Assembly: GCA_964423465.1 (NCBI GenBank)
Contig: CAYRFK010000006.1
Coordinates: 1 to 49,612 of the forward strand
Reading direction: 5' to 3'
Source: an uncultured Verrucomicrobiota bacterium
Lineage (GTDB): Bacteria; Verrucomicrobiota; Kiritimatiellia; PWTM01
DNA: 49,612 nucleotides
Below are positions 14,176-29,464 of the stretch, piece by piece. Position numbers and translations under genes: made by a program. Position 1 is the first letter of the stretch. Every line of letters starts with the position of its first letter. The notes beneath the pieces are model-generated. The model did no database searches, was not told where the DNA came from, and worked only from the letters and a program-made list of their open reading frames with translations.

Positions 14176-14996
14176 AGGCCATTGTCTCGCACGACGTCGA
14201 CCACCTGACGGCATGGGAGCATGTCCGGGATGGCGCGCTGCTGCGCTTCCTGGCGCGCAGCACGATGCAGGCCGCGACACGGGGCATCCCGGCGCGGGTG
14301 GCGGCCGGCCGCCTCTCGGAGATCGCGCGGAACCGCTGGCACAACCTGGATGAACTGGCGGAGTTCGACCGGCACATGGACATTCCATCGACGTTCTTCT
14401 TCGGCATGGCGCGCGGCCTCGGCATGTCGTACGGCGCCGCCGCGGCACGGCCCTGGATCCGGCGGCTGAAGGACGCGGGGTTCGACGTCGGCGTACACGG
14501 CATCGCCTACGACGATGCGCCGGGCATTGGCGCCGAGGCCGCCGCCTTCCGCGAGGCCTCAGGGATCGCGAGCTTCGGCATCCGCATGCACTACCTGCGC
14601 CATGCGCCGGAGACGCCGCGCCTCCTGGAGGCCGCGGGCTACCTGTTCGATTCGACGCGCGAGGCGCTCGGGGCTCCGTGCGTGCACGGGCGCATGGTCG
14701 AGTTCCCGGTCGCCGTGATGGATGCCCGGATCATGTACCCGAGCGGAGGGCTGAATCCGGTCCCGCTCGACGAGGCGAAGGCGGCGACCCTGCGGATCGT
14801 GGCGCGCGCGGAGGCTGCGGCGCTGCCGTACCTGACCGTGCTGTTCCATGACCGCTACTTCTCGGACCGTTTTCCAGAGTGGCGCGCGTGGTACGTCTGG
14901 CTCGTCGACCACCTGCGCGAGCGGGGCATCCGGTTCGCCGGATTCCGGCAGGCCGTGGCCGAGGTGCGCGGCATGGCCGCGGAGGCGGCGGCATGA
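14172..14996 (+). CDS. Polysaccharide deacetylase family protein
   Basis: SHDVDH, STFFF, DVGVHG, GIRMHYLR, YLFDST, TVLFH (NodB/CE4-like motifs). Confidence 0.75.
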   Translation: MKAIVSHDVDHLTAWEHVRDGALLRFLARSTMQAATRGIPARVAAGRLSEIARNRWHNLDELAEFDRHMDIPSTFFFGMARGLGMSYGAAAARPWIRRLKDAGFDVGVHGIAYDDAPGIGAEAAAFREASGIASFGIRMHYLRHAPETPRLLEAAGYLFDSTREALGAPCVHGRMVEFPVAVMDARIMYPSGGLNPVPLDEAKAATLRIVARAEAAALPYLTVLFHDRYFSDRFPEWRAWYVWLVDHLRERGIRFAGFRQAVAEVRGMAAEAAA

Positions 14997-16282
14997 ACGT
15001 GTGGCTGATGACGGTGGGCGAGCCGCTTCCGATCGATCCGGACGGCGACCGCCTGCATCGCACCGGCATGGTGGCCGAGCGGTTGCTGGCGGAGGGACAT
15101 TCCGTCGTGTGGTGGACCTCGGCGTTCGACCACAACCGCAAGCGTGTGCGCTGCGACGCCGATGCCTGCGTGCAGGTCGGCGAACGCTACCGGATCCGGA
15201 TGCTGTACGCGCGGCCCTATCGGAGGCACGTCTCGATCCGGCGGATCCTCAACCACCGTGGGGTGGCCGCGGCGTTCCGGCGGCACGTGGCGGAGGAGCC
15301 GCGTCCCGACGTGATCCTCTGTTCGCTGCCCCTGATCGAACTGGCCGATGCCGCCGGACGTTACGGTCGCGCACACGGCGTGCCCGTGATCGTCGATGCG
15401 CGCGACATGTGGCCCGACATCTTCGCGGAGCTCGCGCCGCCGTGTCTTCGGGGCCTTGCGCGCGCGGCGCTGTTTCCGATGTTCCGTGCCGCGCGCCGGG
15501 CGTGCCGGAACGCCGCCGCCCTGACCGGCATCACGCCGCCCTTCGTCGAGTGGGCGCTGGCGAAGGCGGGGCGTGCACGGTCGGACGCCGACCGCGATTT
15601 CCCGCTGGCCTACGACGGCCGCGGGACGGCGGCCGCCGCGACGGAATCCGTGCGCGAACGCTGGCGGCCCCGGCTGGCCGGGAACGGCGCGTTCACGGCC
15701 TGCTTCTTCGGCACCTTCGGCCGCCAGTTCGACATCGAAACCGTCCTCGGCGCCGCGCGGCGGCTCTCGGGCGGCCCGCGGCGGTTCCAGTTCGTTCTGT
15801 GCGGAAACGGTGACCGGTTGCCGCAGTATCGCGATCTGGCCGCCGGGTGCGGCAACGTCCTGCTGCCGGGCTGGGTCGGGGCGGAGGACATCGCGTACCT
15901 CATGAGCCGTGCGTCGGTCGGACTCGCCCCCTACCGCAGCAGTCCGAGCTTCGTCGTGAGCATCCCCAACAAGGCGATCGAGTACCTGTGCGGCGGGCTG
16001 CCCGTTCTCTCCAGCCTTTCGGGGGAACTGGAGCGGGTGCTGTCCGAAGGCGGATGCGGATTGACCTATCCCAACGGCGGCGAGGTCGAACTCGCCGACA
16101 CTCTGGTCCGCCTGTACGACGATCCGGCCCTCGTCAGGACGATGGGGGAGCGGGGCCGCACGCTGTTCGAGCAACGCTTCGAGGCCCGCCGCGTCTACGG
16201 CGACATGGTCCGCCATATCGAAACGATCCACCAGAACCATTGCGCCGCGGGTCGTCCCGCGGCGGACGCAACCCGAGGGTGA
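14993..16282 (+). CDS. Glycosyltransferase family 4 (WbuB-like)
   Basis: VIVDARDMWPD, PNKAIEYLCGGLPVL. Confidence 0.85.
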   Translation: MNVWLMTVGEPLPIDPDGDRLHRTGMVAERLLAEGHSVVWWTSAFDHNRKRVRCDADACVQVGERYRIRMLYARPYRRHVSIRRILNHRGVAAAFRRHVAEEPRPDVILCSLPLIELADAAGRYGRAHGVPVIVDARDMWPDIFAELAPPCLRGLARAALFPMFRAARRACRNAAALTGITPPFVEWALAKAGRARSDADRDFPLAYDGRGTAAAATESVRERWRPRLAGNGAFTACFFGTFGRQFDIETVLGAARRLSGGPRRFQFVLCGNGDRLPQYRDLAAGCGNVLLPGWVGAEDIAYLMSRASVGLAPYRSSPSFVVSIPNKAIEYLCGGLPVLSSLSGELERVLSEGGCGLTYPNGGEVELADTLVRLYDDPALVRTMGERGRTLFEQRFEARRVYGDMVRHIETIHQNHCAAGRPAADATRG

Positions 16283-16285
16283 CCC

Positions 16286-17212
16286 ATGGAAGAGCGAAGC
16301 ATCTGGTTCCGCGGCTCGATCGTACCCGCCCGGGACGCGACGGTGAACGTGCTGTCGCCCACGGCGCAGTTCGGACTCAACGTGTTCGAGGGCATCCGCT
16401 GCTACTGGAATCCGCGTCGGCAGCAACTCTACGCCTTTCGTCTGGCCGAGCACTTTGCGCGGCTGCAACGCTCCTGCAAGCTGATCGGCCTGCCGTGTCC
16501 GTATGGGGCCGCCGAGATGGAGGGCTTCATGGTCGCGGTTCTCCGCCATAACGGATACCGCGAGGATGTGGCGGTCCGGATGACCGTGTTCGCCGACGGC
16601 GAGGGTTCGTGGAGCTCGACCGGGCCGGTGGACATGTTCATCGCGCCCGCCGCGCGGCGAAGGACCGACCTCCAGACCCTGAAGGGGCTTGCGGGCTGCG
16701 TCTCCACCTGGCAGCGGATAGGGGACACCTGCCTCCCGCCGCGGATCAAGGCCGGCGCCAATTACATCAACGGGCGGTACGGTTTCCTTGAGGCGAAACG
16801 CAACGGCTACGACGTGCCGGTCTTCCTCGCGGCGAACGGCAAGGTGTCCGAGTCCGCGGGGGCCTGCCTCTTCCTCGTCCGCGACGGCGTGCTGGCGACG
16901 CCGCCGTTGACGTCCTCGGTGCTGGAGAGCATCACCCGTGCGACATTGATCGACCTCGCCGCCGGCCTGGGGATCCCGGTGGACGTCCGCGAAGTCGACC
17001 GCACGGAGCTCTACATCGCCGACGAGGTGTTTCTCTGCGGCAGTGCGGCGGAGGTGACGCCGGTCGTGTCGATGGACAGGATTCCCGTGGGCTCCGGCGC
17101 GCCCGGCCCGGTGACCGTCTCCCTGCTGAAGGCCTACCTCGATCACGTTTCCAACGAACCCGGAGCCCGCTCCGAATGGCTGACACCGATCCATCCCGCA
17201 GGCCTTCCGTGA
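16286..17212 (+). CDS. ilvE: PLP fold-type IV aminotransferase (branched-chain type)
   Basis: FGLNVFEGIRCY, RLAEHFARL, KAGANY, ESAGACLF, LESITR, ADEVFLCGSAAEVTPV. Confidence 0.85.
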   Translation: MEERSIWFRGSIVPARDATVNVLSPTAQFGLNVFEGIRCYWNPRRQQLYAFRLAEHFARLQRSCKLIGLPCPYGAAEMEGFMVAVLRHNGYREDVAVRMTVFADGEGSWSSTGPVDMFIAPAARRRTDLQTLKGLAGCVSTWQRIGDTCLPPRIKAGANYINGRYGFLEAKRNGYDVPVFLAANGKVSESAGACLFLVRDGVLATPPLTSSVLESITRATLIDLAAGLGIPVDVREVDRTELYIADEVFLCGSAAEVTPVVSMDRIPVGSGAPGPVTVSLLKAYLDHVSNEPGARSEWLTPIHPAGLP

Positions 17213-17838
17213 GCGGGCGCAACGGACCTCCGCTGTCCGATGCGTTGAAGCGGGCGATGGATCTCGCCGGTGCGACCGTCGGACTTCTGGTGATGCTGCC
17301 GCTGTGGATGGCCGTGGCGGTCTGGATCAAGCGCGACTCGCCGGGCCCCGTGCTGTTCCGTCAGGGGCGGCTGGGGAGGGGCGGGCGCGTTTTTCAGATG
17401 TGCAAATTCAGGACCATGGTCGTGAACGCCGAGAAGGTGGGAACCGGGCTCTTCAGCTACGAGGACGATCCGCGCGTGACGCGGTCGGGCTGGATTCTGC
17501 GCGCGACCAGCCTGGATGAAACGCCGCAACTCCTGAACGTTCTGGCCGGCAGCATGTCGCTCGTCGGACCGCGTCCGCCGGTGACGTACGAGTTGGGCGA
17601 CTACGACGCGATGCCGGAGTCCATGAAGGAGCGGTTCCGCGTGAAGCCGGGCATCACGGGACTGGCGCAGGTGTCGGGGCGCAACGATCTGAGCTGGGAG
17701 GAGAAGATCGTCCACGATCGGGAGTACCTGCGGCGGTACCGGCGCCACGGGATTCTGGAGGACATCCGCATCCTGGCCCTGACGCTCGTCGTGGTGGCGC
17801 GGCGGAGCAGCGTGGTCGAGAAGCGGCGGGAGGCCTGA
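17209..17838 (+). CDS. Monotopic phosphoglycosyl transferase (PglC/Bac_transf), initiating sugar transferase
   Basis: [66 protein letters not shown]. Confidence 0.92.
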
Positions 17839-17841
17839 GAC

Positions 17842-19071
17842 ATGGACTGGAACGAGGCACAACGGCTGTCGGAGCTGCACGGCGACGGGTTCTTCCTGTA
17901 TGACGAGGCCCGCCTTGCGGCGAACTTCGCGGAGATTCGCGACGCCTTCGCCGCCGCGTACCCGGCGACGCGCGTCGCCTACTCGTACAAGACCAACTAC
18001 ACCCCGGCTGTCTGCCGCTGCATCGACCGACTCGGCGGCTACGCGGAGGTCGTTTCGCACATGGAGTACGGGCTGGCGCGGCGGATCGGCGTCGATGGGA
18101 GCCGGATCATCTACAACGGCCCCTGCAAGTCCGAGGATTCCGTCCGCGAGGCGCTGCTGGGAGGATCGATCGTCAACATGGATTCGTGGCGTGACTGCGA
18201 TCTCGTTCTGCAGACCGCCCGCGGCGCGCCGCGCCGGATGCTGAACGCATCGATCCGGTGCAACTTCCCGGTCAACGAGGGGCCGCGCTCGCGCTTCGGC
18301 CTCGAGGTCGACGGCTCCGAGTTCCGGGCGGTCCTCGGGGCGATCCGCGACGCCGGGAACCTGCGCTTGGCCGGCCTCCACTGCCACTTTCCCAGCCGCG
18401 ATATCGAGTCCTACGCCGTCCGCGCAGACCGGATGCTGGAGCTGGCCTCCGCGCTGTTTTCCACGCCGCCGGACTTTCTGGACATCGGCGGGGGGTTCTT
18501 CGGTCACGTTCCTGACTCGATGCGGGCCGGCCTCAAGGTGAGGGTGCCGTCGTTCGCCGAGTATGCGGACGTCGTGGGCGGGCGGTTCCGGCGCGCCTAT
18601 CCCGCCGGCGGTGGAACGCCCGTGCTGTTCATCGAGCCGGGGACGGCCATCGTCGCAGACACCTTCACTTTCCTCACGAAGGTTCTCGACCTCAAGACCG
18701 TGGCAGGGCGGAGGATCGCAACGGTCGCCGGGAGCATCTTCAACATCAGCCCCAACGCCCGGTGCACCACCCTCCCGGTTACGGTGCTTCGCCGGACCGC
18801 AGATGCCGACCCCGAAGCCGACGGGCCGGTCGATGTGGCTGGCTATACGTGCATCGAGAGCGACTATCTCTCGCGGTCTCTGCCAGGGCCGCTGTCGGTC
18901 GGGGATTTCCTCGTCTACCACCAGGTGGGCTCGTACTCCGTCGTCATGAAGCCGCCCTTCATCCTGCCGGCCACGCCGATCCTCAAGCGGGAGGGCGACG
19001 GCGGGGGGTGCGTGCCGGTGAAACGCCGCGAGACGTGCGACTACGTGTTCGAGAACTTCACGGTGCCCTGA
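17842..19071 (+). CDS. PLP fold-type III decarboxylase (diaminopimelate decarboxylase-like)
   Basis: YSYKTN, IYNGPCK, SRFG, GLHCH, LDIGGGF, IEPGTAIV, GYTCIESD, VGSY. Confidence 0.85.
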   Translation: MDWNEAQRLSELHGDGFFLYDEARLAANFAEIRDAFAAAYPATRVAYSYKTNYTPAVCRCIDRLGGYAEVVSHMEYGLARRIGVDGSRIIYNGPCKSEDSVREALLGGSIVNMDSWRDCDLVLQTARGAPRRMLNASIRCNFPVNEGPRSRFGLEVDGSEFRAVLGAIRDAGNLRLAGLHCHFPSRDIESYAVRADRMLELASALFSTPPDFLDIGGGFFGHVPDSMRAGLKVRVPSFAEYADVVGGRFRRAYPAGGGTPVLFIEPGTAIVADTFTFLTKVLDLKTVAGRRIATVAGSIFNISPNARCTTLPVTVLRRTADADPEADGPVDVAGYTCIESDYLSRSLPGPLSVGDFLVYHQVGSYSVVMKPPFILPATPILKREGDGGGCVPVKRRETCDYVFENFTVP

Positions 19072-19970
19072 TGGACTTCATCTACATCACCAACGACCCC
19101 GTCCGCGCCCGGGCGGCGGACGGAGCGGGAGTGGATCGCGTGATGGTCGATCTCGAGATCCATGGCAAGGTCGCGCGGCAGGGGCATCGGAACACGGTGA
19201 TCTCGCGGCACACGCCCGAGGATGTGAGCGTGATCCGGCGGGTACTTCGGACGGCGCGGCTGATGGTGCGAGTCAACCCCATGCACGCTGCACTGGCGGC
19301 CGAGGTGGACGACGCGGTGGATCGCGGCGCCGACATCCTCATGCTGCCCATGTTCACGTCGGCCGGGGATGTCCGCGAGTTTGTCCGCATGGTCGGCGGG
19401 CGGGCGCGGGTCTGCCTGCTGCTGGAAACCGGGGCGGCCTTGGCGCGCGCGGATGACGTCGCATCAGTTTCGGGCGTCGACGAGATCCACATCGGGCTCA
19501 ACGATCTGCACCTCGCGCTCGGCCTCGACTTCATGTTCGAGCTTCTGTCGGGCGGACTGGTGGACCACCTTGCGTCGATCCTGCGCGCCCGTCGCGTGAA
19601 GTTTGGATTCGGCGGCGTCGGGCGACTGGAGAGTGGACCGCTCCGTTCCAACTGGATCCTCTCGGAGCATTGCCGGCTCGGGTCGTCGATGGTGATTCTG
19701 TCCAGGGACTTCAACCGGGTCTTTGAAGACGTCTCCGAGGAGGATGGCATGCGCGGATTCCGCGGGGAGGTGTCGCGGGTGAGGGGCTTCGTCGACGGTT
19801 TGGCGTCGGCACCCCCGGTTGAACTGGCCGCCAACGCGGAACGGCTCAGGACCGCCGTACGGGCGATTGCGGCGGATCTGCGAGAGGGCGCGCCATCCGG
19901 GACAGGGGATTCCGGCACGGCTTCGGCCGCGAGCCTCCCAATGGGCGTCCGATATGCAGGTGCGCCATGA
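19071..19970 (+). CDS. HpcH/HpaI aldolase / citrate lyase family protein
   Basis: VMVDLE, VRVNP, GADILMLPM, LLLET, IHIGLNDL; TGATG coupling to decarboxylase. Confidence 0.8.
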   Translation: MDFIYITNDPVRARAADGAGVDRVMVDLEIHGKVARQGHRNTVISRHTPEDVSVIRRVLRTARLMVRVNPMHAALAAEVDDAVDRGADILMLPMFTSAGDVREFVRMVGGRARVCLLLETGAALARADDVASVSGVDEIHIGLNDLHLALGLDFMFELLSGGLVDHLASILRARRVKFGFGGVGRLESGPLRSNWILSEHCRLGSSMVILSRDFNRVFEDVSEEDGMRGFRGEVSRVRGFVDGLASAPPVELAANAERLRTAVRAIAADLREGAPSGTGDSGTASAASLPMGVRYAGAP

Positions 19971-22879
19971 CGGATGGAGGGCAGGACGGCTGGCGCGCAT
20001 CGCTTCTCGCGGTCCCGGTGAGGATCCGCTGGGCGGCGTGCGTCGTGCACATGGCGGCTGTCGCGGTTCTTTCGCTGCTGCCCGTAACGTCGTTCCCGTC
20101 GTCGGTGTCGTGGCTCCCCGGTGCCGACAAGCTGGTGCATGTCGCGATGTATGGGGCGCTGGGGGCGCTGTTGCGGTGGGCGGTGGACCGGGGCGGGGCG
20201 GAGGTGGCGTTTTCGCCGGAACTGCTGCTCCCTGCGGCGGCCGGATACGGGTTGTTGATGGAGATCCTGCAGTCGTTGTTCACCAACGGCATGCGGGCGT
20301 TCGGGTGGGACGACATGGTGGCGAACGTGGTCGGCGTGCTGGTCTTCTGGCGGCTCGCCGAGCGCTTCTTTCGGGGCGGGGTCCGGAACGGGAGGGGGAT
20401 GGTTATGAGCCTTGACAGTCTGCTGGAACTTCTGCCGCGATGGCGGCGGGCCGTGCTGCTGGTCATCCACGCGGTTCTGGCCGCGCTGGTGTACTACGGG
20501 GCTTTCGCCCTTCGTTTCGACATGGCGCTGAGCGGCGATGCACTGCACGTGTTTGCCGTGACGCTGCCGGTCGCGGTGGCCATCAAACTGATCGTGTTCC
20601 AGTTCTTCCGTCTCCACTCCGGCATCCTGCGCTATGCGAGCGTGGGCGACCTGATCCGGATCGCGCAGGCCGCCACGCTGTCGACCCTCGTGATGATCGC
20701 GGCGATGGCGGCGTGGTTCCATCTCGAGGGATACTCGCGGAGCGTATTCGCGATCGACTGGCTGGGTACGATCTTCACCTTCGGCGGCTGGCGGCTCGCG
20801 GTCCGGATCGTCCGGGAGGGCCGCCTTCCCCGGTGGGACAAGGCCTCGGGCATCCGGACGCTGGTGATCGGCGCGGGCGGCGCGGGCGCGATGGTGGTCC
20901 GCGAATCGCGCCGGGATCCGGAATGCGCCCGCGAGTTCATCGGCTTCCTCGATGACGATCCCGCCAAGCTCGGTCTCGCCATCGACGGTGTGAATGTGCT
21001 CGGACCTCTGGCATCGGTACGTGAAACCGTCGAGGCTCGCAAGGTCTCGGAAGTGCTGATTGCGATCCCCTCCGTCGGGCGGAAGCTGACCCAGCAGGTC
21101 GTCGAGGCCTGCGCGGGGCTGGATATGAAGCTCCGGATCGTCCCCTCGTTCTCCGCCGTCGTCGAGGGCCGTGTCGAAATACGGTCGATCCGGGATGTGA
21201 ACGTGGAGGACCTGCTCGATCGCGATCCGATCCAACTCGACCGTGGCGCGGTGGTCGGTGCGTTTGCCGGGAAACGGGTGCTCATCAGTGGGGCCGGCGG
21301 TTCGATCGGCGCCGAACTCGCCCGCCAGGCCGCAGCGCTCGAACCGGCGCAGCTTATCCTTCTCGATGTGGCGGAGACGCCGTTGTTCAACATCGACCAG
21401 GAGCTCGGGCGAACCCATCCGCTCGTGCCGCGCACGGCCGTCATCGCGAACATCTCGGACCCGATCCGGGTGGAGCGGGTGTTCACGCAACACCGCCCCG
21501 ACTACATTCTGCACGCCGCCGCCTACAAGCACGTGCCGTTGATGGAGTCGTTCCCCTGCGATGCCGTGCACAACAACCTTCGCGGTACGCGGGTTCTCGC
21601 CGAGGCCGCGCGGCGGCACGGGGCGAAGAAGTTTGTCATGATCTCGACGGACAAGGCCGTCCGACCCTCCAATGTCATGGGCGCCACGAAACGGCTGTGC
21701 GAGATGCTTGTGGGATCCATGAACGGGGGCGGCACGCACTTCGCCTCGGTCCGGTTCGGCAACGTGCTCGGCAGCAACGGCAGCGTCGTGCCCACCTTCC
21801 GCCGGCAGATCGCGGCCGGCGGACCTGTGACCGTGACGCATGCGGAGATGACCCGCTACTTCATGACGATCCCGGAGGCGGTGTCGCTCGTGCTGCAGTG
21901 CGCGTCGATGGCGGCCGAATCGGATGTCTATGTGTTGGACATGGGGACGCCGGTCAAGATCATGGATCTGGCTCGGACGATGATCGCGCTCTCTGGATTC
22001 CGCGTGGGGGACGATATCGAGATCGCCGTCACGGGCCTCCGCCCCGGCGAGAAGATCCACGAGGAGCTCGTCACCTACGGCGAGGCGGAGCAGAATACGG
22101 ACGTGCCCAAGGTTCGCGTGCTCCGCCGCGAGGCCGACGTCGTCGCCCCCGACCTCCTCCGCCGTGCCCTGCTGCACATGGAGGAGGTTGCGCGGCGCCA
22201 GGATCCCGATGCGACGCTTAAGGTGCTCTGGAAGATCATCGGGCTCGACGGCGAGGTCGGCACCGTGGCCTCGCATCCCGCCGGGCGTGTGCGGGTCGAG
22301 ACGCTGCGCGCCGAGTGGGAGACGATGCTCAACGAGACGCTTGTGGAGCCGGCGGAACTGCCGGTCCTCCGGTCCGGCGGGCGCATCCTGGTTGTGGACG
22401 ACGACGAGGCGCAGCTCTCCCTCGTCGTCCGCATGATCGAGCGACTCGGCGTCGGATGCGTGTCGGCCACGAGCGGCCGGGCGGCCGTCGAGACGTTCAG
22501 CAGCATGGCGCCGTCGGGCATCCTGTGCGTCGTCTGCGACTACTTTCTTCCGGATATGAATGGCGACGAAATCCTCCGGCGCATCCGGGACGTCGAACCG
22601 GACGTCCCCTTCGCCTTTATGACCGGCTACGGACGCGGCAGTCGCGAGGTGTCCGCCATCGCCGAACTGCCGGGCGTCGTGACGGTTCTTCAAAAGCCGT
22701 TCGGCCGCGCGACACTTCAGAAACTCCTCTCCAGCGTGCCGCACCAGGGCCGTGGCCCGTCCCGCGCCGATCCGGTCTCGCGCGCCGGCCGGCGAGTCCC
22801 TCCAGGAGGAATCGCTATGTTGATTCCGGAGGGTTCGGCGATGGGTCGGGACGAGAATCTGGCGATCGAAAAAGATTGA
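19967..22879 (+). CDS. Fusion ORF: VanZ-like domain + PglF/CapD/WbpM UDP-GlcNAc 4,6-dehydratase + C-terminal response-regulator receiver domain
   Basis: VanZ: DKLVH..MYG, MEILQ, DDMVANVVG. Dehydratase: GAGGSIGAEL, HAAAYKHVPLME, ISTDKAV.P.NVMGATK, RFGNVLGSNGSV, GLRPGEKIHEEL. REC: ILVVDDD, VCDYFLPDMNG, FMTGY, QKPF. Possible internal start near 20399/20405 after GGGAGGGG. Confidence 0.85.
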   Translation: MTDGGQDGWRASLLAVPVRIRWAACVVHMAAVAVLSLLPVTSFPSSVSWLPGADKLVHVAMYGALGALLRWAVDRGGAEVAFSPELLLPAAAGYGLLMEILQSLFTNGMRAFGWDDMVANVVGVLVFWRLAERFFRGGVRNGRGMVMSLDSLLELLPRWRRAVLLVIHAVLAALVYYGAFALRFDMALSGDALHVFAVTLPVAVAIKLIVFQFFRLHSGILRYASVGDLIRIAQAATLSTLVMIAAMAAWFHLEGYSRSVFAIDWLGTIFTFGGWRLAVRIVREGRLPRWDKASGIRTLVIGAGGAGAMVVRESRRDPECAREFIGFLDDDPAKLGLAIDGVNVLGPLASVRETVEARKVSEVLIAIPSVGRKLTQQVVEACAGLDMKLRIVPSFSAVVEGRVEIRSIRDVNVEDLLDRDPIQLDRGAVVGAFAGKRVLISGAGGSIGAELARQAAALEPAQLILLDVAETPLFNIDQELGRTHPLVPRTAVIANISDPIRVERVFTQHRPDYILHAAAYKHVPLMESFPCDAVHNNLRGTRVLAEAARRHGAKKFVMISTDKAVRPSNVMGATKRLCEMLVGSMNGGGTHFASVRFGNVLGSNGSVVPTFRRQIAAGGPVTVTHAEMTRYFMTIPEAVSLVLQCASMAAESDVYVLDMGTPVKIMDLARTMIALSGFRVGDDIEIAVTGLRPGEKIHEELVTYGEAEQNTDVPKVRVLRREADVVAPDLLRRALLHMEEVARRQDPDATLKVLWKIIGLDGEVGTVASHPAGRVRVETLRAEWETMLNETLVEPAELPVLRSGGRILVVDDDEAQLSLVVRMIERLGVGCVSATSGRAAVETFSSMAPSGILCVVCDYFLPDMNGDEILRRIRDVEPDVPFAFMTGYGRGSREVSAIAELPGVVTVLQKPFGRATLQKLLSSVPHQGRGPSRADPVSRAGRRVPPGGIAMLIPEGSAMGRDENLAIEKD

Positions 22880-22919: not shown

Positions 22920-22949
22920 TGTGCATAAACGAGGGAAGGAGTACCGAGG

Positions 22950-23135
22950 ATGCAAAAGAAGGTGTACGAGAAGCCGGAAGTTGTGCGAGTTGCGCTGAGC
23001 TCCGAGGAGCGTCTTGCCGCGTGCGACTTCTTCTACAAGACGGGGTACAGCGGGTCGGGCTGCCGGACGTCGTTCTATCCGGACGACAATCCGGCCACCT
23101 GCACGATCATGATCACCCCGGAATCGGCGAGTTAG
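22950..23135 (+). CDS. Putative RiPP precursor peptide (61 aa)
   Basis: Strong RBS (GGAAGGAG..GAGG); leader KKVYEKPEV (YxxP RRE-binding type); Cys25/38/51; C-terminal Ser; first gene ahead of the RRE + rSAM operon. Confidence 0.8.
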   Translation: MQKKVYEKPEVVRVALSSEERLAACDFFYKTGYSGSGCRTSFYPDDNPATCTIMITPESAS

Positions 23136-23155
23136 TCGTCCGCCCGCGCAGCGTA

Positions 23156-23193
23156 TTCGCCCCGCGCCCCGCGTCCTGCGGGGGCGGGGCGGA
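23156..23193 (+). terminator. GC-rich stem-loop after the precursor gene (no U-tract; attenuator or mRNA stabiliser)
   Basis: CGCCCCGC(G)CCCCGC-GTCCT-GCGGGGGCGGGGCG: 14-bp stem with one bulge. Confidence 0.55.
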
Positions 23194-23205
23194 GCGCATG
23201 TCACT

Positions 23206-24042
23206 GTGTCAACCTGCCTTTCCATTGCCGGTCTCCGGATTCGGTGTGATTCCGGGGATCCGATGCCGGACGGCTTCGAAGGCTTCGCCTGCGATGCCGG
23301 AGCGTCGCACGAGATGCTCTTCCATGTGAAGGCGTGCACGGATGTGGTCTTCGGGGGGACGCGACTGGGCAGGGCGGGGCACTTTACCTTCTGGTTGGAC
23401 GACGGTCTCGAGCATGTCGTTCTCGAGACCTTCAACGGGGCCGCGATCGGCTGCGTGTCGATGGATCGCGACTGGACCTGCGCCACGTTTCAGATCGTGA
23501 TGTCCGCGGATCGCGTCACGGTGTTCCGCATCCTGAGCGAGGTGGTCTTCCGGACGCTGTTGATCCGGAGGGGCCGCGGGCTCGTCCTGCATGCCGCCGG
23601 AATCAGCTGCAACGGGCGCGGGCTCGCGCTGGTCGGCCGGTCCGGGACGGGCAAGTCCACGCAGGCCCGGCACTGGGTCGCAACGAAAGGGGCGGTGGTC
23701 CTGAACGAAGACCGGCCCGCGGTGACGCTGGGACCGGACCGCGCGACGGTGCATGGGACTCCCTGGAGCGGTTCGTCGCGGAACCACCGGGCGGCCTCCG
23801 CACCCCTCGCGGCCGTCGTCCTGCTCGAACAGGGCCCCGCCAATGAGGCCCGGAGAATCGCCCGAACCGAGGCGCTGCCCCGGATCCTGCCGCGCGTATT
23901 CATGCCCTACTGGAGCGCGGCGGGAATGGACGACGCCCTGGCCATGGTCGAACGCTTGGTGACCGAAGTCCCGATCATCCATCTCCGGTGCCTGCCGGAT
24001 GCGGGAGGCGTCGCGGAGCTGGAGCGAGCCCTCGACGTCTGA
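23206..24042 (+). CDS. HPr kinase-related P-loop protein (ScmC/PadeK-like peptide kinase)
   Basis: LVLHAAGI, Walker A GRSGTGKST, VLNEDRP, HGTPWSG, LEQGPAN. Confidence 0.75.
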   Translation: MSTCLSIAGLRIRCDSGDPMPDGFEGFACDAGASHEMLFHVKACTDVVFGGTRLGRAGHFTFWLDDGLEHVVLETFNGAAIGCVSMDRDWTCATFQIVMSADRVTVFRILSEVVFRTLLIRRGRGLVLHAAGISCNGRGLALVGRSGTGKSTQARHWVATKGAVVLNEDRPAVTLGPDRATVHGTPWSGSSRNHRAASAPLAAVVLLEQGPANEARRIARTEALPRILPRVFMPYWSAAGMDDALAMVERLVTEVPIIHLRCLPDAGGVAELERALDV

Positions 24043-24087
24043 TTTCCCGGCCGACCGTCCGAACTCCGTGTTCCCCCCGATGGCGCC

Positions 24088-24633
24088 ATGCAATCTGCCC
24101 CCGTACGTCAGCCCGGCGACTGCGCTCCGGTGGACACCGGCGCCATGCACGCCGAACTGCTTTCCACCGTGCGGCGGCTGCCGTTTGCCGCCCTGGTGGG
24201 ACCGATCCGTGATGCCCTGGACAGCGGCGGCCGTGTACGGTTCCGCGTCGAAGGAAACAGCATGCTCCCCTGGCTGCGAGGCGGTGCGGACGATGTCATC
24301 CTGATTCCGGCCGGCGGCCGTGCGTGGGGTGTGGGGGACATCGTGCTGATCCGGGATCCCAAGGACCGGTTCATCCTGCATCGCGTGACGCGCCGCCACG
24401 GCGGTGAGATCTGGCTCATGGGCGATGCGCAGAGCGAGACGGAAGGCCCGTGGGCGGAAGAACGCGTGGAGGCGGTGGTCGAGCGGGTCGTTCATTGGGG
24501 TCGGGACGTTGACATGAGCTCCTTCGAGGCGCGGGCGTTCGCCCGGATCTGGCGCGCGGTTCGCCCCTTCCGCCGCAGACTCCTGGCGCTGGCGTTCGCC
24601 GTGCGCGCCCGAACGCGGAGGCCCCGGCCATGA
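24088..24633 (+). CDS. S24/S26 family peptidase
   Basis: VEGNSMLPWL (catalytic Ser), GDIVL, ILHRV (His), MGDA. Confidence 0.8.
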   Translation: MQSAPVRQPGDCAPVDTGAMHAELLSTVRRLPFAALVGPIRDALDSGGRVRFRVEGNSMLPWLRGGADDVILIPAGGRAWGVGDIVLIRDPKDRFILHRVTRRHGGEIWLMGDAQSETEGPWAEERVEAVVERVVHWGRDVDMSSFEARAFARIWRAVRPFRRRLLALAFAVRARTRRPRP

Positions 24634-26354
24634 ACTGGCGGCGGTGGGATCCGCGACGGAAGAGAGGGGAGATTCGCTGGCTCTGGAGGCAGACGCACGG
24701 CTTCCGCACGGCGATCGTCGCGCTCATGGCGGGGAACGCGGGGCTCTCGCTGTTCGGCGTGGCTTTCGCAGCGGTCAGCAAGCAGCTAATCGACCGGGCA
24801 TCCGGCGCCGCCGCCGGGGGGATGGCCGGCCCTCTCGTCGCGATGGCCGGGCTGGTGTTGATTCTCATCGTCGGCCAGGCGGCACTCGGGCTGCTCGCCC
24901 CGCGGCTTACGGTCCGGATGGAGCACCGCCTCCGCGCCGACCTCTATTCAGGGCTGCAAGCCGCGTCGTGGAACGAACTGCGACGCCACCACAGCGGGGA
25001 CCTTCTGACCCGGCTGACCAGCGACATTGCGTCGGTCGTCCAAGGGGTGACCGCCGTGATGCCGGAGGTTCTTTCGATGTTGGTGCGGCTGGCGGGCGCG
25101 CTCGCCTACCTCGCGTTCATGGATGCCACCCTCGCCGTCGCGGCCCTCGCCGCGGGGCCCTTGTTCCTTATTCCCGGCCGGTTCTTCGCCTCCCGGTTGC
25201 GGGATCTCGAGAAGCAGAACCGCGAGAACGAAGGCCGGCTGCGCGGGTTCGTGCAGGAGTCCCTTCGCAAGAACGAAACGGTGAAGGCGTTCAATTTGGA
25301 GCCGGTTTTCGACGAGCGTCTCGCCGGTCATCAATCCGAGGCGATGCGCCTCCAGATGCGGCGCGCGTGGCTGTCTCTGGCGCCCGGCGTGGGGCTCACC
25401 TCCGGGTACTGGGCCGGCCACCTCGTCGCGCTGGCGTGGGGCGCTTCTCGGATGGCGGCCGGACAGGCCACATTCGGGACGCTGACGGCGTTCCTGCAGT
25501 TGGTCGGCCATGTCCAGGGGCCTTTCCATATTCTCGCCCGATCCGTGCCGCGGCTCGCGTCCATCCTCGCATCGGTCGAGCGTCTGCAGGCGATCGAGTC
25601 GCTGCCGCCGGATCCGGACGACGCGCCGATCGGGCTGCACGAGTCCACCACGCCTACGCCCGGTGCCGTGGATCTGGAGTTCGACAAGGTCACGTTCACG
25701 TACGACAAGGAGCCTGTGCTGCGCGACGTGAGCTTCCGCATCCGCGCCGGCGAGCGCGTGGCGGTGGCCGGGCCCTCCGGTGTGGGCAAGACGACCATCC
25801 TCCGGCTTCTCCTCGGGCTGGTTCATCCCGACTCCGGGTCGGTGCGGGTCCGGGAGGCCGGGGCAGGGGATGCCGGCCGGAGAGCCTCCCGCGCGACACG
25901 CCGCTACTTCGCGCATGTGTCCCAGGGCAACACGCTCTTTTCCGGAACCCTGATCGAGAACGTACTCCTGGGCCGTCCCGGCGGAGGCCCCGAGTCGGCC
26001 CATGCGGCATGCCGGAATGCGTCGGCGGATGGCTACATCCGGCAGCTTCCGGATGCGTACCATACCCGGATCGGGGAGAACGGGGACGGTCTTTCCGAGG
26101 GGCAGGCCCAGCGCATCGCCCTCGCGCGCGCGCTGCTGCGCGACGCCCCGGTGCTGCTGCTCGACGAGGCGACGTCCGCGCTGGACCGGGCCACCGAATG
26201 CGCCGTCCTTGATCACTTGCGCACGAGGGACGGCCGCCGCACACTCATCGTCGTGTCGCACCGGCCGGAGGTGCTGGCGGTATGCGACAGGGTTCTGACA
26301 GTGTCGGAAGGTCGTGTGGACGAGCATGTGAGCACGGAGGCGAAGAGCACATGA
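24630..26354 (+). CDS. ABC exporter, fused TMD + NBD (no C39 peptidase domain)
   Basis: HSGDLLTRLTSD; Walker A GPSGVGKTT; signature LSEGQAQR; Walker B LLLDEATSALD; H-loop VSHR. Confidence 0.92.
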   Translation: MNWRRWDPRRKRGEIRWLWRQTHGFRTAIVALMAGNAGLSLFGVAFAAVSKQLIDRASGAAAGGMAGPLVAMAGLVLILIVGQAALGLLAPRLTVRMEHRLRADLYSGLQAASWNELRRHHSGDLLTRLTSDIASVVQGVTAVMPEVLSMLVRLAGALAYLAFMDATLAVAALAAGPLFLIPGRFFASRLRDLEKQNRENEGRLRGFVQESLRKNETVKAFNLEPVFDERLAGHQSEAMRLQMRRAWLSLAPGVGLTSGYWAGHLVALAWGASRMAAGQATFGTLTAFLQLVGHVQGPFHILARSVPRLASILASVERLQAIESLPPDPDDAPIGLHESTTPTPGAVDLEFDKVTFTYDKEPVLRDVSFRIRAGERVAVAGPSGVGKTTILRLLLGLVHPDSGSVRVREAGAGDAGRRASRATRRYFAHVSQGNTLFSGTLIENVLLGRPGGGPESAHAACRNASADGYIRQLPDAYHTRIGENGDGLSEGQAQRIALARALLRDAPVLLLDEATSALDRATECAVLDHLRTRDGRRTLIVVSHRPEVLAVCDRVLTVSEGRVDEHVSTEAKST

Positions 26355-26623
26355 GACTGAAGCCTGGATTCATGCTGAGGAAAGTGGTCGATACATGGGT
26401 CGTCGTGCCCCTCGGCGAGCGGGTGGTCGACTTCAATGGGATCCTGACGCTGACCGGATCCGCCGCGATGCTCTGGGAACGGCTGTCTGCGGCCGAAGGG
26501 GCGTCCCGCGAGGACCTGCTGGCGCGGATGCTGGACGAGTATGAGGTCGACGCAGCCACGGCGGCGCCCGATCTCGACGCGTTTCTTGCGGCCCTTCGCG
26601 AGGCGGAGCTGATCGAGCCATGA
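26351..26623 (+). CDS. Stand-alone PqqD family RiPP recognition element (RRE)
   Basis: 90 aa; LTLTGSAAMLWERL, LLARMLDEYEVD, DLDAFLAALREAELI; ATGA-coupled both sides. Confidence 0.88.
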   Translation: MRLKPGFMLRKVVDTWVVVPLGERVVDFNGILTLTGSAAMLWERLSAAEGASREDLLARMLDEYEVDAATAAPDLDAFLAALREAELIEP

Positions 26624-27774
26624 CCGCCGTCCGGACGGACCCGGACGCCGAAGCGGCCGGGGAGGCGAAGTACCGGTGGTTCGACACGACGAACCGCCTC
26701 CGCGTCGTCGCCGGGCAGCGCCGGATCCCGCTCATCGGGACCTTTGAACTGACGGCCCGGTGCAATCTGGGCTGCAGGATGTGTTTCGTCCGGCGCGACG
26801 CGGGCGACCGGGAAGCGCTTGCCGCCGAACTCTCCGCCTCCGCATGGATGGATATGGCGGTCCAGGCCCGCGCATCGGGCATGCTTTTCCTGCTTCTGAC
26901 CGGCGGCGAGCCGCTGGTTCGAAAGGACTTCTGGGAGATCTACGAGGCCCTCTGCCGCATGGGGTTCATCCTCACGCTCTACACCAACGGAACGCTGATC
27001 GGGGACGAAGAGGCGGCCCGGTTCGGCCGCTGCCCACCGGGGCGCATTGTGGTGACATTGTACGGCGCGTCGTCGGCGACCTACGGATCACTCTGCGGAA
27101 GTGCCCCCGCCTTTGACCGCGCCGTGGCGGGCGTCCGCCGGCTTCTCGCGGCGGGGCTTCATCCGCAGATCCGCGCGACCGTCTGCCGGGAGAACGTCGG
27201 CGATATCGAGGCGCTGGATGCCTTGTCCCGAGAACTGACGGGCCGCCCGCGGATCGAGACAAGCATGCTGCTCTCCCCCCCGGTTCGCGAGGCCCGGTCG
27301 GAGGCCGCGGACCTGCGGTTGCGCCCGGAGGAGATGGCCGGCATCCAGCGGCGCGACGTGACCTGCGATCCGGAGTCCATCGCCGCCAACGCGGGCGTCT
27401 CGCAGATTCTGACGTCCGCATCCGCGGGGCGCACACCCGCGAAGACCGCCGAGCGCAGGCCTCTTCCCCCCATGTTCTGCTCCGGCGGCCGGGGATCGTT
27501 CTGGCTGGCGTGGGACGGCCGCATGCTCCCCTGCGCGCTGATGGATTCCCCCTTCACGCGTCCGTTCGACGCAGGCTTCGCCCCGGCGTGGGGGGATCTG
27601 GTTGCGCAGACGGACCGAATCCCCGGCGCTGATGAATGCGGGACCTGCGAGCATCGCCCGTTCTGTTCGGTCTGTCCGGGCCGCCTTCAGGCCGAGACGG
27701 GGGACTTCACGAAGCTGTCGCCTCACGTCTGCCGGGCCGCCGAGATCCTCCACACCATGGCCGACCGGGCCTAA
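26620..27774 (+). CDS. Radical SAM/SPASM peptide maturase
   Basis: ELTARCNLGCRMC (CxxxCxxC), LTGGEPL, YTNGTL; SPASM cysteines C..DGRMLPC..CGTCEHRPFCSVCPG..C. Confidence 0.92.
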   Translation: MTAVRTDPDAEAAGEAKYRWFDTTNRLRVVAGQRRIPLIGTFELTARCNLGCRMCFVRRDAGDREALAAELSASAWMDMAVQARASGMLFLLLTGGEPLVRKDFWEIYEALCRMGFILTLYTNGTLIGDEEAARFGRCPPGRIVVTLYGASSATYGSLCGSAPAFDRAVAGVRRLLAAGLHPQIRATVCRENVGDIEALDALSRELTGRPRIETSMLLSPPVREARSEAADLRLRPEEMAGIQRRDVTCDPESIAANAGVSQILTSASAGRTPAKTAERRPLPPMFCSGGRGSFWLAWDGRMLPCALMDSPFTRPFDAGFAPAWGDLVAQTDRIPGADECGTCEHRPFCSVCPGRLQAETGDFTKLSPHVCRAAEILHTMADRA

Positions 27775-29141
27775 TAATCCAGCACCTGCAGATCCGTCAG
27801 CAGGCGCAGTTTCTCCCCGCTCATCCGCTCTGCGCTCCGCACGGTCTGCAGACGCCGCCACAGGACCGCCGGTGGCACGATCAGGCCGCGCGCGATCCGG
27901 TGCGCCCACGCCACCGGCAGCAGCAGAGGGTTCGACCACGCGTACTTGTAGCGCTCCCCAAGATGGCCCCGCACTGGGAACGCCATCCGGGATAGCATCC
28001 GCGCGCGGCTGCCTTCTGCCGCCCCGGATTCAAGTCGTGGCGACGCGTGAGTCCGGTCGCGGTACTTCCCCTGCATCACGGCGGCGAACGCCAACCCACG
28101 ATCCGGCCTCCGGCCCCCATGCACCCCGGCATCCAGGATGTCGCGGGCCAGCATGTCCAGCAGCTCCTGTCGGATCTCCCCGGACCATGCCGATTCCAGA
28201 TCCGCCGGCAGCGGGGCCTGCAGCTTCCTCCGGCACAGGAGCAGCGCCGAGCGTCCAAACCGTCCGGCCCTGTGCTCTTCCAATCGCGCAGCCAGCCGCC
28301 CTGCATCGACTCCCGCCTTGAGAAGAACGGTCAGGTCGGCCAGGTCGCGCGGGCCGAATCCCGTCGCCCGCAGGTGCTTCACCATGTGCAGCACCAGGTA
28401 GACCGCCGAGTCCTCGATCGAAGGTGCGACCAGCCCCGACGTAGGATCGGGTTGTGAACGGTCCAGGATGAGTTGCGTCAGGCCGGTCTCCCCCTGGATC
28501 CGCGACAGCGTGATGAAAAGACGGTGGTGCAGTTCGAACATCGTCCCCGACTCGTGCCACCAACTCTGGACGTTCTCGGTGGCGCCGACCTTCCTCATCC
28601 CGAGTCCCTGGAGGATGTCGCATGCGGGGGCGAGATCCTCCGGTCGGATCAACAGGTCCACGTCGCCCATCGTGCGAAGTTCCGGATGCGGATAGAGCGC
28701 CCGGACGACCACACCCTTCAACCCCACCGCGCGAATACCCTGTGCGCCCAGGGCTCCGGCCACGGCCGCGGCCGCTTGGAATCGCTGCGATTCGCGTATG
28801 CCCGTCTGCATGGCCATCTTGCGCCATCGCTCCAGCCGGTCCCGCGGAGGCCGCCGATCCTGAGGAAGCCCGGCCACGGCCGGAAACAGCAGGCCGGTCA
28901 CGCAGCAGGATTGCGAGAGGGCTATCAATTCGTCCCAGTCTTCCGCATGCAGAGCCGGGACCCCGACCGGTGACGAGTCGTGAAGCGCGGCGGAAAGCAA
29001 GGGCCACAGCGCGCCGGATACCCTGTCAGCCCCGTCGGTTTTCGGCGTGCCCTTCACGTTGCGCGCAGCATCGCGGAAGGCGGCTGACCGTTTCGGTCCG
29101 ACCGCCGCTTCATCGTCCGTGTTTGCCCGACCGCTGCCCAT
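27771..29141 (-). CDS. Nucleotidyltransferase family protein (NTP_transf_5-like)
   Basis: LKGVVVRALYPHPELRTMGDVDLLI, FELHHRL, LVLHMVKH, G.GPRDLADL; RBS GGAGG; stop overlaps the rSAM stop. Confidence 0.85.
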   Translation of the reverse strand: MGSGRANTDDEAAVGPKRSAAFRDAARNVKGTPKTDGADRVSGALWPLLSAALHDSSPVGVPALHAEDWDELIALSQSCCVTGLLFPAVAGLPQDRRPPRDRLERWRKMAMQTGIRESQRFQAAAAVAGALGAQGIRAVGLKGVVVRALYPHPELRTMGDVDLLIRPEDLAPACDILQGLGMRKVGATENVQSWWHESGTMFELHHRLFITLSRIQGETGLTQLILDRSQPDPTSGLVAPSIEDSAVYLVLHMVKHLRATGFGPRDLADLTVLLKAGVDAGRLAARLEEHRAGRFGRSALLLCRRKLQAPLPADLESAWSGEIRQELLDMLARDILDAGVHGGRRPDRGLAFAAVMQGKYRDRTHASPRLESGAAEGSRARMLSRMAFPVRGHLGERYKYAWSNPLLLPVAWAHRIARGLIVPPAVLWRRLQTVRSAERMSGEKLRLLTDLQVLDY

Positions 29142-29342: not shown

Positions 29343-29418
<76 letters not shown>

Positions 29419-29436: not shown

Positions 29437-29464
29437 AGCATAGCGGCCGGCGGCGGGGTGTCAA
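29437..29464 (-). promoter_or_regulatory. Sigma70 promoter of tRNA-Phe
   Basis: Minus strand TTGACA-N16-TATGCT, 18 nt upstream of the tRNA. Confidence 0.7.

Follow-up and report, generated by a model that had tools for sequence, protein, structure and literature searches.

The window analysed here, 49,612 nucleotides of contig CAYRFK010000006.1 from an uncultured Verrucomicrobiota bacterium, carries a gene cluster for a peptide made on the ribosome and modified after translation (RiPP) whose enzymes include a radical S-adenosylmethionine (rSAM) protein with a SPASM region. In what we regard as the probable reading, this is a complete cluster of the lasso-derived superfamily to which the linear polyphosphorylated peptides (LPP) belong, within a large branch that has a dedicated rSAM/SPASM maturase and cysteine-bearing cores, and its product would be an exported peptide cross-linked at Cys and phosphorylated at Ser. 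The gene identities, the conserved cassette and the precursor family can be read directly from the sequences compared, and the individual chemical steps are argued from them by analogy. The features of the cluster are as follows.

22934-22941, forward strand: Shine-Dalgarno-like GGAAGGAG, 8 nt 5' of the precursor ATG, read directly from the sequence
22950-23135, forward strand: precursor peptide gene, 61 aa, with Tyr6-x-x-Pro9 and Glu20-Arg21 in the predicted leader, Cys25, Cys38 and Cys51 in the predicted core, and C-terminal Ser61
23148-23201, forward strand: GC-rich hairpin between the precursor and kinase genes (-45.2 kcal/mol, z -3.37)
23206-24042, forward strand: HprK-like (ScmC-like) P-loop kinase, 278 aa, putative counterpart of LppK and PsmK, assigned from weak NCBIfam matches, conserved residues and a family profile
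24088-24633, forward strand: putative leader peptidase resembling signal peptidase I (endoplasmic reticulum (ER)/archaeal type, Ser-His-Asp), counterpart of LppS; alternative start at 24145
24630-26354, forward strand: MsbA-like ATP-binding cassette (ABC) exporter with fused permease and ATPase and without a C39 peptidase domain (ABC_membrane and ABC_tran; TIGR02204 E 4.6e-84, MsbA E 2.5e-73)
26351-26623, forward strand: stand-alone PqqD-type RiPP recognition element (RRE), counterpart of LppB and lasso B1 proteins (PF05402 E 3e-14)
26620-27774, forward strand: radical SAM/SPASM peptide maturase without a fused RRE (PF04055 E 2.4e-17; CxxxCxxC and seven invariant SPASM Cys)
27771-29141, reverse strand: nucleotidyltransferase-family protein of PF14907 (NTP_transf_5), counterpart of LppN and PsmN (PF14907 E 7.6e-45)
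29343-29418, reverse strand: tRNA-Phe(GAA), at the right-hand boundary of the variable region in which the cluster lies

An earlier note on this DNA had laid out a precursor gene and six enzyme genes, and a check of the open reading frames (ORFs) found all seven where it had placed them. The ATGA overlaps that it described are present at 24630, 26351 and 26620, joining the genes for the peptidase, the ABC exporter, the PqqD-type protein and the rSAM enzyme, and the nucleotidyltransferase gene is indeed convergent with the rSAM gene, the TAA of the latter and the TAG of the former overlapping at 27771-27774. Four of the genes (ABC exporter, PqqD, rSAM and the PF14907 protein) have strong Pfam or NCBIfam assignments. 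The cluster was also said to lack a lasso cyclase and a B2 protease, and this is borne out: PF13471, the lasso B2 protease family, has no match in the genome (87.8% complete), and the five genome matches to PF00733 (asparagine synthase) all lie on contigs other than that of the window.

The precursor belongs to a recurrent family. An iterated profile seeded with the 61-aa ORF of the window (MQKKVYEKPEVVRVALSSEERLAACDFFYKTGYSGSGCRTSFYPDDNPATCTIMITPESAS) found 40 small ORFs in 37 of 80 loci fetched via the rSAM enzyme, and all 40 match YxxP, the 5'-truncated ORF of one locus (L055) only at a later site. An alignment of 29 precursors shows no variation at Tyr6 or Pro9, and the distance from the Tyr to the first Cys is 19-21 residues in most of the 40 precursors. 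A C-terminal Ser is found in 30 of the 40, compared with 10.3% of 9,529 background small ORFs. Within the clade of the window, E20, R21, A23, C25, C51 and S61 are invariant in eight sequences, and Cys38 is retained in the closest five. The ORF has no Pfam or NCBIfam match, and its GC content at third codon positions (0.82) is similar to that of the neighbouring genes. By the profile and alignment evidence, the 61-aa ORF is a real member of this precursor family.

Among the observations that the earlier note had named beforehand as speaking against such a system is that homologous loci lack a conserved upstream peptide. Such a peptide was found: profile searches over all loci gave 64 related small ORFs in 124 homologous loci, and we take the point as settled in favour of the cluster because three orthologous precursors (85, 80 and 69% identical) and the precursor of a more distant locus, L087, retain all three Cys and the terminal Ser. 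The original description as a complete cluster of RiPP type is upheld, with a YxxP leader and a stand-alone RRE of the lasso type.

The Cys content of the cores follows the presence of the rSAM gene. Among 53 precursors located within 6 kb of an rSAM gene, 52 have at least one Cys after YxxP, and the sole exception is a 5'-truncated ORF. Without an rSAM gene the count is 1 of 11; the Cys of that one precursor lies within the YxxP motif, and another of the 11 is a spurious fragment. On a tree of the kinases, rSAM-bearing and rSAM-less loci interleave, which requires at least six changes, two of them forced by supported branches. The pattern suggests that the rSAM enzyme acts on the core Cys, with thioether cross-links as the most likely outcome.

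The rSAM enzyme itself carries C48, C52 and C55 of the radical SAM motif and, toward its C-terminus, C287, C305, C340, C343, C349, C352 and C371, all invariant in 26 sequences; on this conservation, the seven C-terminal Cys are a full SPASM region. The radical SAM motif begins at residue 48, and there is no fused RRE domain. The AlphaFold2 model (mean predicted local distance difference test score, pLDDT, 84.8) gave as best Foldseek matches SkfB (E 2.3e-13), SuiB, BlsE, PqqE and CteB (E 6.6e-10). These structural neighbours are peptide-modifying SPASM/twitch enzymes, and anSME and the epimerase EpeE are also among them. By sequence, 801 proteins were related at E ≤0.001 among 8,000 candidates scored, the closest relatives being 56-70% identical and many from Clostridia 33-41%, and a search of the whole representative library returned 603 proteins of the rSAM family at E ≤1e-30.

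SPASM enzymes catalyse many reaction types, and one alternative retains the same cluster and precursor but has the rSAM enzyme make no thioether. It would instead oxidise Cys (as in the anSME type), epimerise residues, form a C-C or C-O cross-link elsewhere while the Cys are joined as disulfides, or perform a new Cys chemistry. Structural neighbours with other chemistries (SuiB, which forms C-C bonds, PqqE, BlsE, anSME and EpeE) are consistent with this, as is the lack of fit to any curated family of sacti- or ranthipeptide maturases: with the StsB model the score is 67.9 bits, where the cut-off is 625, and with the SkfB model E is 1.8e-11. Set against these points are the tracking of Cys with rSAM and the conserved Cys positions, the first at a fixed distance from the leader motif, which is the pattern of thioether donors; nor is any CxPxR-type sulfatase motif visible in the window core. 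We judge this alternative unlikely and favour thioether formation by the rSAM enzyme.

The association of the rSAM enzyme with the rest of the cassette was examined in two samples. In the first, the ORFs of the 80 loci fetched via the rSAM enzyme were searched with the window proteins, and co-occurrence was found for the kinase-like protein in at least 64 loci, PqqD in at least 50, the peptidase in at least 26, the ABC exporter in at least 17 and the nucleotidyltransferase in at least 10; the counts are minimum values, as many contigs stop close to the rSAM gene. All six enzyme genes occur together in 11 of the 124 homologous loci. L087 (genome G297), from another family of the same class, has an identical gene order, including the convergent nucleotidyltransferase, with an rSAM enzyme 60% identical to that of the window. 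The arrangement is beyond chance because the six enzyme genes recur together and L087 has them in the same order.

A second sample was drawn through the nucleotidyltransferase. In a single class of small-genome Bacillota, 400 genomes were searched for PF14907 and 69 contained it; among the 40 regions fetched from these, 12 had an rSAM gene, 19 had a kinase, RRE or peptidase gene without rSAM, and nine had the nucleotidyltransferase or ABC gene alone. In the small-genome Bacillota, the rSAM-bearing loci L133, L135, L136, L139, L140, L146, L156 and L161 have short cores with a single Cys, usually in a C-G-E-E-like motif located 5-6 residues before an aromatic C-terminus. The cores of the rSAM-less loci L126, L132, L143-L145, L147, L149, L152, L155 and L159 are free of Cys, and in several of them an E-(E/D/T)-I-W-G-like motif forms the C-terminal end or lies close to it. 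Gene duplications were seen at three loci: L133 carries a pair of kinase-like genes placed in separate clades of the kinase tree, in L156 both the rSAM and the PqqD gene are doubled, and in L007 both the PqqD and the peptidase gene.

These data bear on a second alternative, in which the cluster is an ordinary LPP cluster that makes a linear phosphopeptide and the rSAM enzyme is a mere neighbour serving another pathway, such as that of the adjacent polysaccharide locus or cofactor synthesis. The best NCBIfam matches of the rSAM enzyme are the heme/cofactor enzymes AhbD and NirJ, the cluster adjoins genes for glycosyltransferases and a sugar transferase, and a related protein, P0218, is fused to a family-2 glycosyltransferase (GT2). 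However, the start of the rSAM gene overlaps the stop of the RRE gene, and the rSAM loci so regularly include the kinase and PqqD genes as counted above; a natural rSAM-kinase fusion exists (P0225, 650 aa, whose C-terminal part matches the window kinase with E 2e-23); cores at rSAM-less loci are Cys-free; and the LPP precursor consensus beyond YxxP is absent from the window. We consider a bystander rSAM enzyme very improbable, and continue with an rSAM enzyme dedicated to the peptide. As to the fusions, P0218 (622 aa) had also been a candidate rSAM-kinase fusion and was ruled out by its GT2 domain; both proteins are known from protein sequences alone and may be gene-calling artefacts.

The enzyme set without the rSAM protein has a published counterpart. 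LPP were defined by Popov et al. (Nat Commun 2026, PMC13381572; we draw on parts of the article) with the lppAKBSDN cluster of Paenibacillus alginolyticus, which comprises a YxxP-leader precursor, a kinase resembling HprK (LppK), a discrete RRE (LppB), a signal peptidase of the archaeal type (LppS), an MsbA-like exporter (LppD) and an NTP transferase (LppN). By experiment, LppK adds several phosphates to core Ser3, and LppS (S29, H68, D93) needs LppB to cleave the leader and acts poorly on peptide that lacks phosphate. D70 of LppB hydrogen-bonds the leader Tyr, and Y60, D70 and F74 hold the leader Tyr and Pro. The precursor consensus is YxxPxVLxHQxIxFETxxS, with the phosphorylated Ser three residues past the cleavage site. 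LPP clusters often lie in capsule loci and are stated to be restricted to Bacillota (PMC13381572). The words 'radical', 'rSAM' and 'SPASM' have no occurrence in its main text (supplements not covered), and a literature search, with subscription journals mostly outside its coverage, found no paper in which a radical SAM enzyme accompanies this gene set; a preprint on streptococcal rSAM clusters (bioRxiv 10.1101/467670) is, judging by the portion available, unrelated.

In line with the portions of that article on which we draw, the window contains the same five enzyme types, an HprK-like kinase, a discrete RRE, a Ser-His-Asp signal peptidase, a PF14907 protein and an MsbA-like exporter, the peptidase being assigned from its family profile and conserved residues. 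It shares the YxxP leader, with Glu at position -2 of the predicted cleavage register, and likewise has a polysaccharide-gene neighbourhood and a patchy distribution. Unlike LPP, whose product is linear, the window adds an rSAM/SPASM gene overlapping the RRE gene; three invariant Cys and a Ser at the C-terminus mark its core, in place of the FET-xxS junction with phospho-Ser3; and window-type relatives also occur outside Bacillota. The HQxIxFETxxS part of the consensus is absent, the window reading E-E-R-L-A-A-C with Ala and then Cys at the position of the LPP Ser. On two counts, a precursor that departs from the consensus and a putative cross-linking enzyme that the LPP set lacks, the window cluster falls outside LPP as defined.

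It follows that the earlier note's description of an undescribed system has to be withdrawn in its general form, since the set of kinase, RRE, signal peptidase, nucleotidyltransferase and MsbA-like exporter was published as LPP in May 2026 (PMC13381572, in the parts on which we draw). Its view that the cluster matches no characterised product is supported in part: the enzyme chassis is that of LPP, whereas the rSAM/SPASM enzyme and the Cys-rich core remain unmatched. From these sequence comparisons, the LPP-type enzyme set without rSAM is already described and the rSAM-bearing version with a Cys core appears to be new.

At the level of residues, the window enzymes resemble their proposed counterparts. 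The kinase has invariant H129, G149, K150, T152, W157, D169 and G189 in 32 sequences, including the P-loop G149-K150-x-T152, and its family profile matches HPr kinase/phosphorylase (1jb1, E 1.8e-5). In the peptidase, G-x-S-M-x-P, H-R and G-D motifs are invariant in 32 sequences and present in 45-46 of 46 in another alignment. Its family profile has as best PDB matches SEC11C (E 3.1e-6) and SEC11A (E 4.6e-5), which rank above LexA, and the alignment with SEC11C pairs the catalytic Ser, His and Asp with those of the peptidase family. A peptidase is therefore present, as had been proposed under the heading S24/S26, but it is not LexA-like, being of the Ser-His-Asp ER/archaeal signal-peptidase type.

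For the RRE, the lasso PqqD models match below cut-off, and the closest solved relatives by sequence are the lasso B1 proteins TbiB1 (E 0.014) and TfuB1. Across 36 sequences D74 never varies, and Y64 and F78 are conserved in 90% or more; the spacing of the three (10, 4) equals that of Y60, D70 and F74 in LppB, a match of spacing only. The nucleotidyltransferase has invariant K142, G143, D160, D162, E203, H205 and H252 in 49 sequences, with D160-x-D162 in 49 of 49. In pseudomycoidin biosynthesis, as set out in excerpts of PMC6993621 and PMC9266682, PsmK phosphorylates the C-terminal Ser, and PsmN, of the same transferase family and with essential D134 and D136, adds a hexose to the phosphate.

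In the pathway that we propose, the PqqD-type RRE would bind the leader through Tyr6-x-x-Pro9, as homology and the conserved residues suggest, and the rSAM/SPASM enzyme would act on the RRE-bound peptide at Cys25, Cys38 and Cys51, most likely forming intramolecular thioether cross-links of the sactionine or ranthionine type. The HprK-like kinase would add one or more phosphates to a Ser, most likely Ser61, as in paeninodin and pseudomycoidin, and the PF14907 enzyme may decorate the phosphate as PsmN does. The Ser-His-Asp peptidase would then remove the leader near Arg21/Leu22, by the register of LppA, and the ABC protein would export the product. In that register (Tyr at -16, cleavage after -1; taken from the parts of the LPP article on which we draw), the window leader would end at Arg21, with Glu20 as Glu -2, and the core would start with L-A-A-C. 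We favour Ser61 as the phosphorylation site because the residue in the register of the LPP phospho-Ser is Ala, no junction-proximal Ser is conserved in the window clade, and the terminal Ser is invariant there; it is also common in the multi-Cys type. The type found in small-genome Bacillota retains a junction Ser and has an aromatic C-terminal residue.

A number of points weigh against this reading. For the locus and its rSAM-bearing relatives it is drawn wholly from sequence. The association of rSAM with Cys has a raw Fisher p of 8e-10, a value that is too favourable, since these are related loci, 80 of which were chosen for having rSAM. On the kinase tree, the independent rSAM-Cys contrasts number two on supported branches and five on all branches; they all have the same direction, and with so few of them the sign test (p 0.5) is not significant. 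The Pfam and NCBIfam matches of the kinase (TIGR04355, HprK-related kinase B, E 5.9e-9; ScmC E 1.8e-4) are far below curated cut-offs, and that of the peptidase (PF00717, Peptidase_S24) is 16.7 bits against a gathering score of 23.3, so that both were assigned from family profiles. The rSAM enzyme reaches no NCBIfam family, with all 50 matches far below cut-offs and the same result for 10 of 10 other members, and the best match is to a non-RiPP enzyme, the heme b synthase AhbD (101 bits against a cut-off of 500); its chemistry is therefore not indicated by sequence. As to phosphorylation, the position corresponding to LPP phospho-Ser3 is Ala in the window, and a C-terminal residue other than Ser is found in 21 of 53 rSAM-linked and 25 of 51 kinase-linked precursors. 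LPP uses core Ser3 and not the C-terminus, which leaves the site in the window uncertain, and no activity of LppN was seen in the heterologous system (both from PMC13381572).

The predicted complex of the RRE and the precursor also adds little. It scored 0.36, with 0.00 for the best of three controls, at least 72% contact agreement between runs and a partner pLDDT of at least 47. Among 80 solved complexes 58 reached the mark that it passed, as did two of 110 mismatched pairs; at scores of 0.60 or below, only seven of the 80 solved complexes reached it, plus both of the passing mismatches. The pass may reflect memory or likeness because similar complexes have already been solved. We take the prediction as weak support for binding of the precursor by the RRE.

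When the cluster is compared with the lasso peptides paeninodin and pseudomycoidin, the shared features are a stand-alone B1-type RRE, a Y/WxxP leader, an HprK-like kinase, a PF14907 transferase and an ABC exporter, so that the tailoring set of kinase, nucleotidyltransferase and ABC protein recognised in the earlier note is indeed present. The conserved C-terminal Ser of the precursor corresponds to the phosphorylation site in those lassos, as given in the excerpted sources, and the paeninodin precursor model matches the leader of one relative weakly (E 0.058). In contrast to paeninodin-type clusters, there is neither a macrolactam synthetase nor a B2 cysteine protease, a serine enzyme of the signal-peptidase type is found, and rSAM is present. 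The suggestion that a radical SAM crosslinker stands in place of the lasso cyclase is plausible as a proposal.

Sacti- and ranthipeptide systems (SkfB, CteB) resemble the window in having an rSAM enzyme with CxxxCxxC and a seven-Cys SPASM region, a Cys-bearing core and leader recognition by an RRE. They differ in that the window RRE is a separate lasso-type protein and not an N-terminal domain, the rSAM enzyme falls within no curated maturase family, a kinase, a nucleotidyltransferase and a signal-peptidase-type protease stand alongside it, and the thioether is here only a proposal. By sequence alone, the cluster would not be filed as a sacti- or ranthipeptide cluster.

A third alternative is that the cluster is a member of Haft's SynChlorMet (SCM) cassette, ScmC/ScmD/ScmE/ScmF (NCBIfam TIGR04249-04251), with which it shares an HprK-like protein of the ScmC type, a PqqD-type protein and an rSAM/SPASM enzyme. 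ScmC, ScmE and ScmF are among the better NCBIfam matches, and an Atlas feature search placed the kinase beside PF27840 ScmC clusters with a score of 0.97, which is a lead only. Yet all scores are far below the equivalog cut-offs (ScmC 20.9 against 125, ScmE 82 against 400, ScmF 87.8 against 400), none of 10 other family members reaches an SCM cut-off, and the window has one rSAM gene where SCM has ScmE and ScmF, and in addition a peptidase, an ABC exporter and a nucleotidyltransferase. The resemblance to SCM pointed out in the earlier note is thus real and membership is not, and we give the SCM assignment very little credence. We know of no characterised SynChlorMet product, and a search for 'SynChlorMet' found no paper in a literature that mostly leaves out subscription journals.

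Beyond the assignment of the cluster to an LPP-type superfamily, we put forward, tentatively and with some doubt, that the rSAM branch is a RiPP class of its own, of exported peptides that are both cross-linked at Cys by the rSAM enzyme and phosphorylated or phospho-glycosylated at Ser, in which kinase and rSAM cooperate, and which is large, modular and distributed over several phyla. In most loci the kinase and rSAM genes are neighbours, and at least one protein is a fusion of the two, so that phosphorylation might control cross-linking and leader removal or be controlled by them. If this is true, the class would be large (~600 rSAM clusters at 50% identity, many from gut Clostridia) and modular, an LPP-type chassis having acquired or shed rSAM several times, and would have spread to several phyla. 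One product would then combine two RiPP strategies so far known apart, rSAM cross-linking of Cys and kinase and nucleotidyltransferase decoration of a Ser phosphate, in a pathway that also employs the newly recognised signal-peptidase-type leader protease, and the LPP family would be widened beyond Bacillota and beyond linear products. The short window precursor, with three Cys and one terminal Ser, would serve as a test case for the sharing of one RRE and leader by an rSAM enzyme, a kinase and a protease, and the rSAM-bearing cluster is a good lead for genome mining. The recurrent position beside polysaccharide loci may be a clue to the biological role.

Named loci of the rSAM family come from Bacteroidales, Armatimonadota, Verrucomicrobiota, Actinomycetota, Chloroflexota and others. 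The named relatives are chiefly gut and rumen Clostridia (Oscillospiraceae, Acutalibacteraceae and Lachnospiraceae), with one cultured Ruminiclostridium. This last, R. cellobioparum subsp. termitidis CT1112 (L011), possesses all six enzyme genes and would be a convenient organism in which to test the family; its locus has three candidate precursors (7455-7670, 9183-9353 and 9393-9527), and a second PF14907 gene lies on another contig. A metagenome scan with the window rSAM enzyme gave one locus, partial and distant (L081). A locus of the same class as the window (L090) and one on a Verrucomicrobiota contig (L068) are 74% identical in nucleotide sequence over a 1.5 kb region of PqqD, rSAM and precursor.

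Closer to the window, the rSAM enzyme is present in two of 15 genomes of the order and in four of 401 sampled from the phylum, the window genome being counted in both, and it was not found in three genomes of the same genus (97, 94 and 76% complete). Synteny with two congeners (L169 and L170) begins exactly at tRNA-Phe, at window positions 29343 and 29335, and extends to 38277 with 78-84% identity. The 29 kb upstream of tRNA-Phe, which hold the polysaccharide locus and the RiPP cluster, have no nucleotide match beside that tRNA in L169 or L170. The GC content of the host (~68%) is a further point of difference from LPP, and that of the cluster equals that of its flanks, which points to an accessory element in a variable region and not to a recent import from a low-GC donor.

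The polysaccharide locus lies directly upstream (11852-22879) and encodes two group-1 glycosyltransferases, a class IV aminotransferase, an initiating sugar transferase of the Bac_transf family and a PLP decarboxylase. It also encodes a 970-aa CapD-like Polysacc_synt_2 protein with a C-terminal response-regulator receiver domain, an unusual fusion.

A scan for promoters and terminators gave nothing useful within the cluster, and no sigma-70-like site before the precursor gene. The hairpin at 23148-23201 has no U-tract and was not called by the terminator scan; one of 200 shuffles folds equally well, and it is possibly a stem that stabilises or attenuates the transcript. The best promoter-like site of the region is at 29437-29464 on the reverse strand (TTGACA, 16 nt, TATGCT), upstream of tRNA-Phe, and the nucleotidyltransferase gene could be read from it because it is on the same strand and begins ~200 nt after the tRNA.

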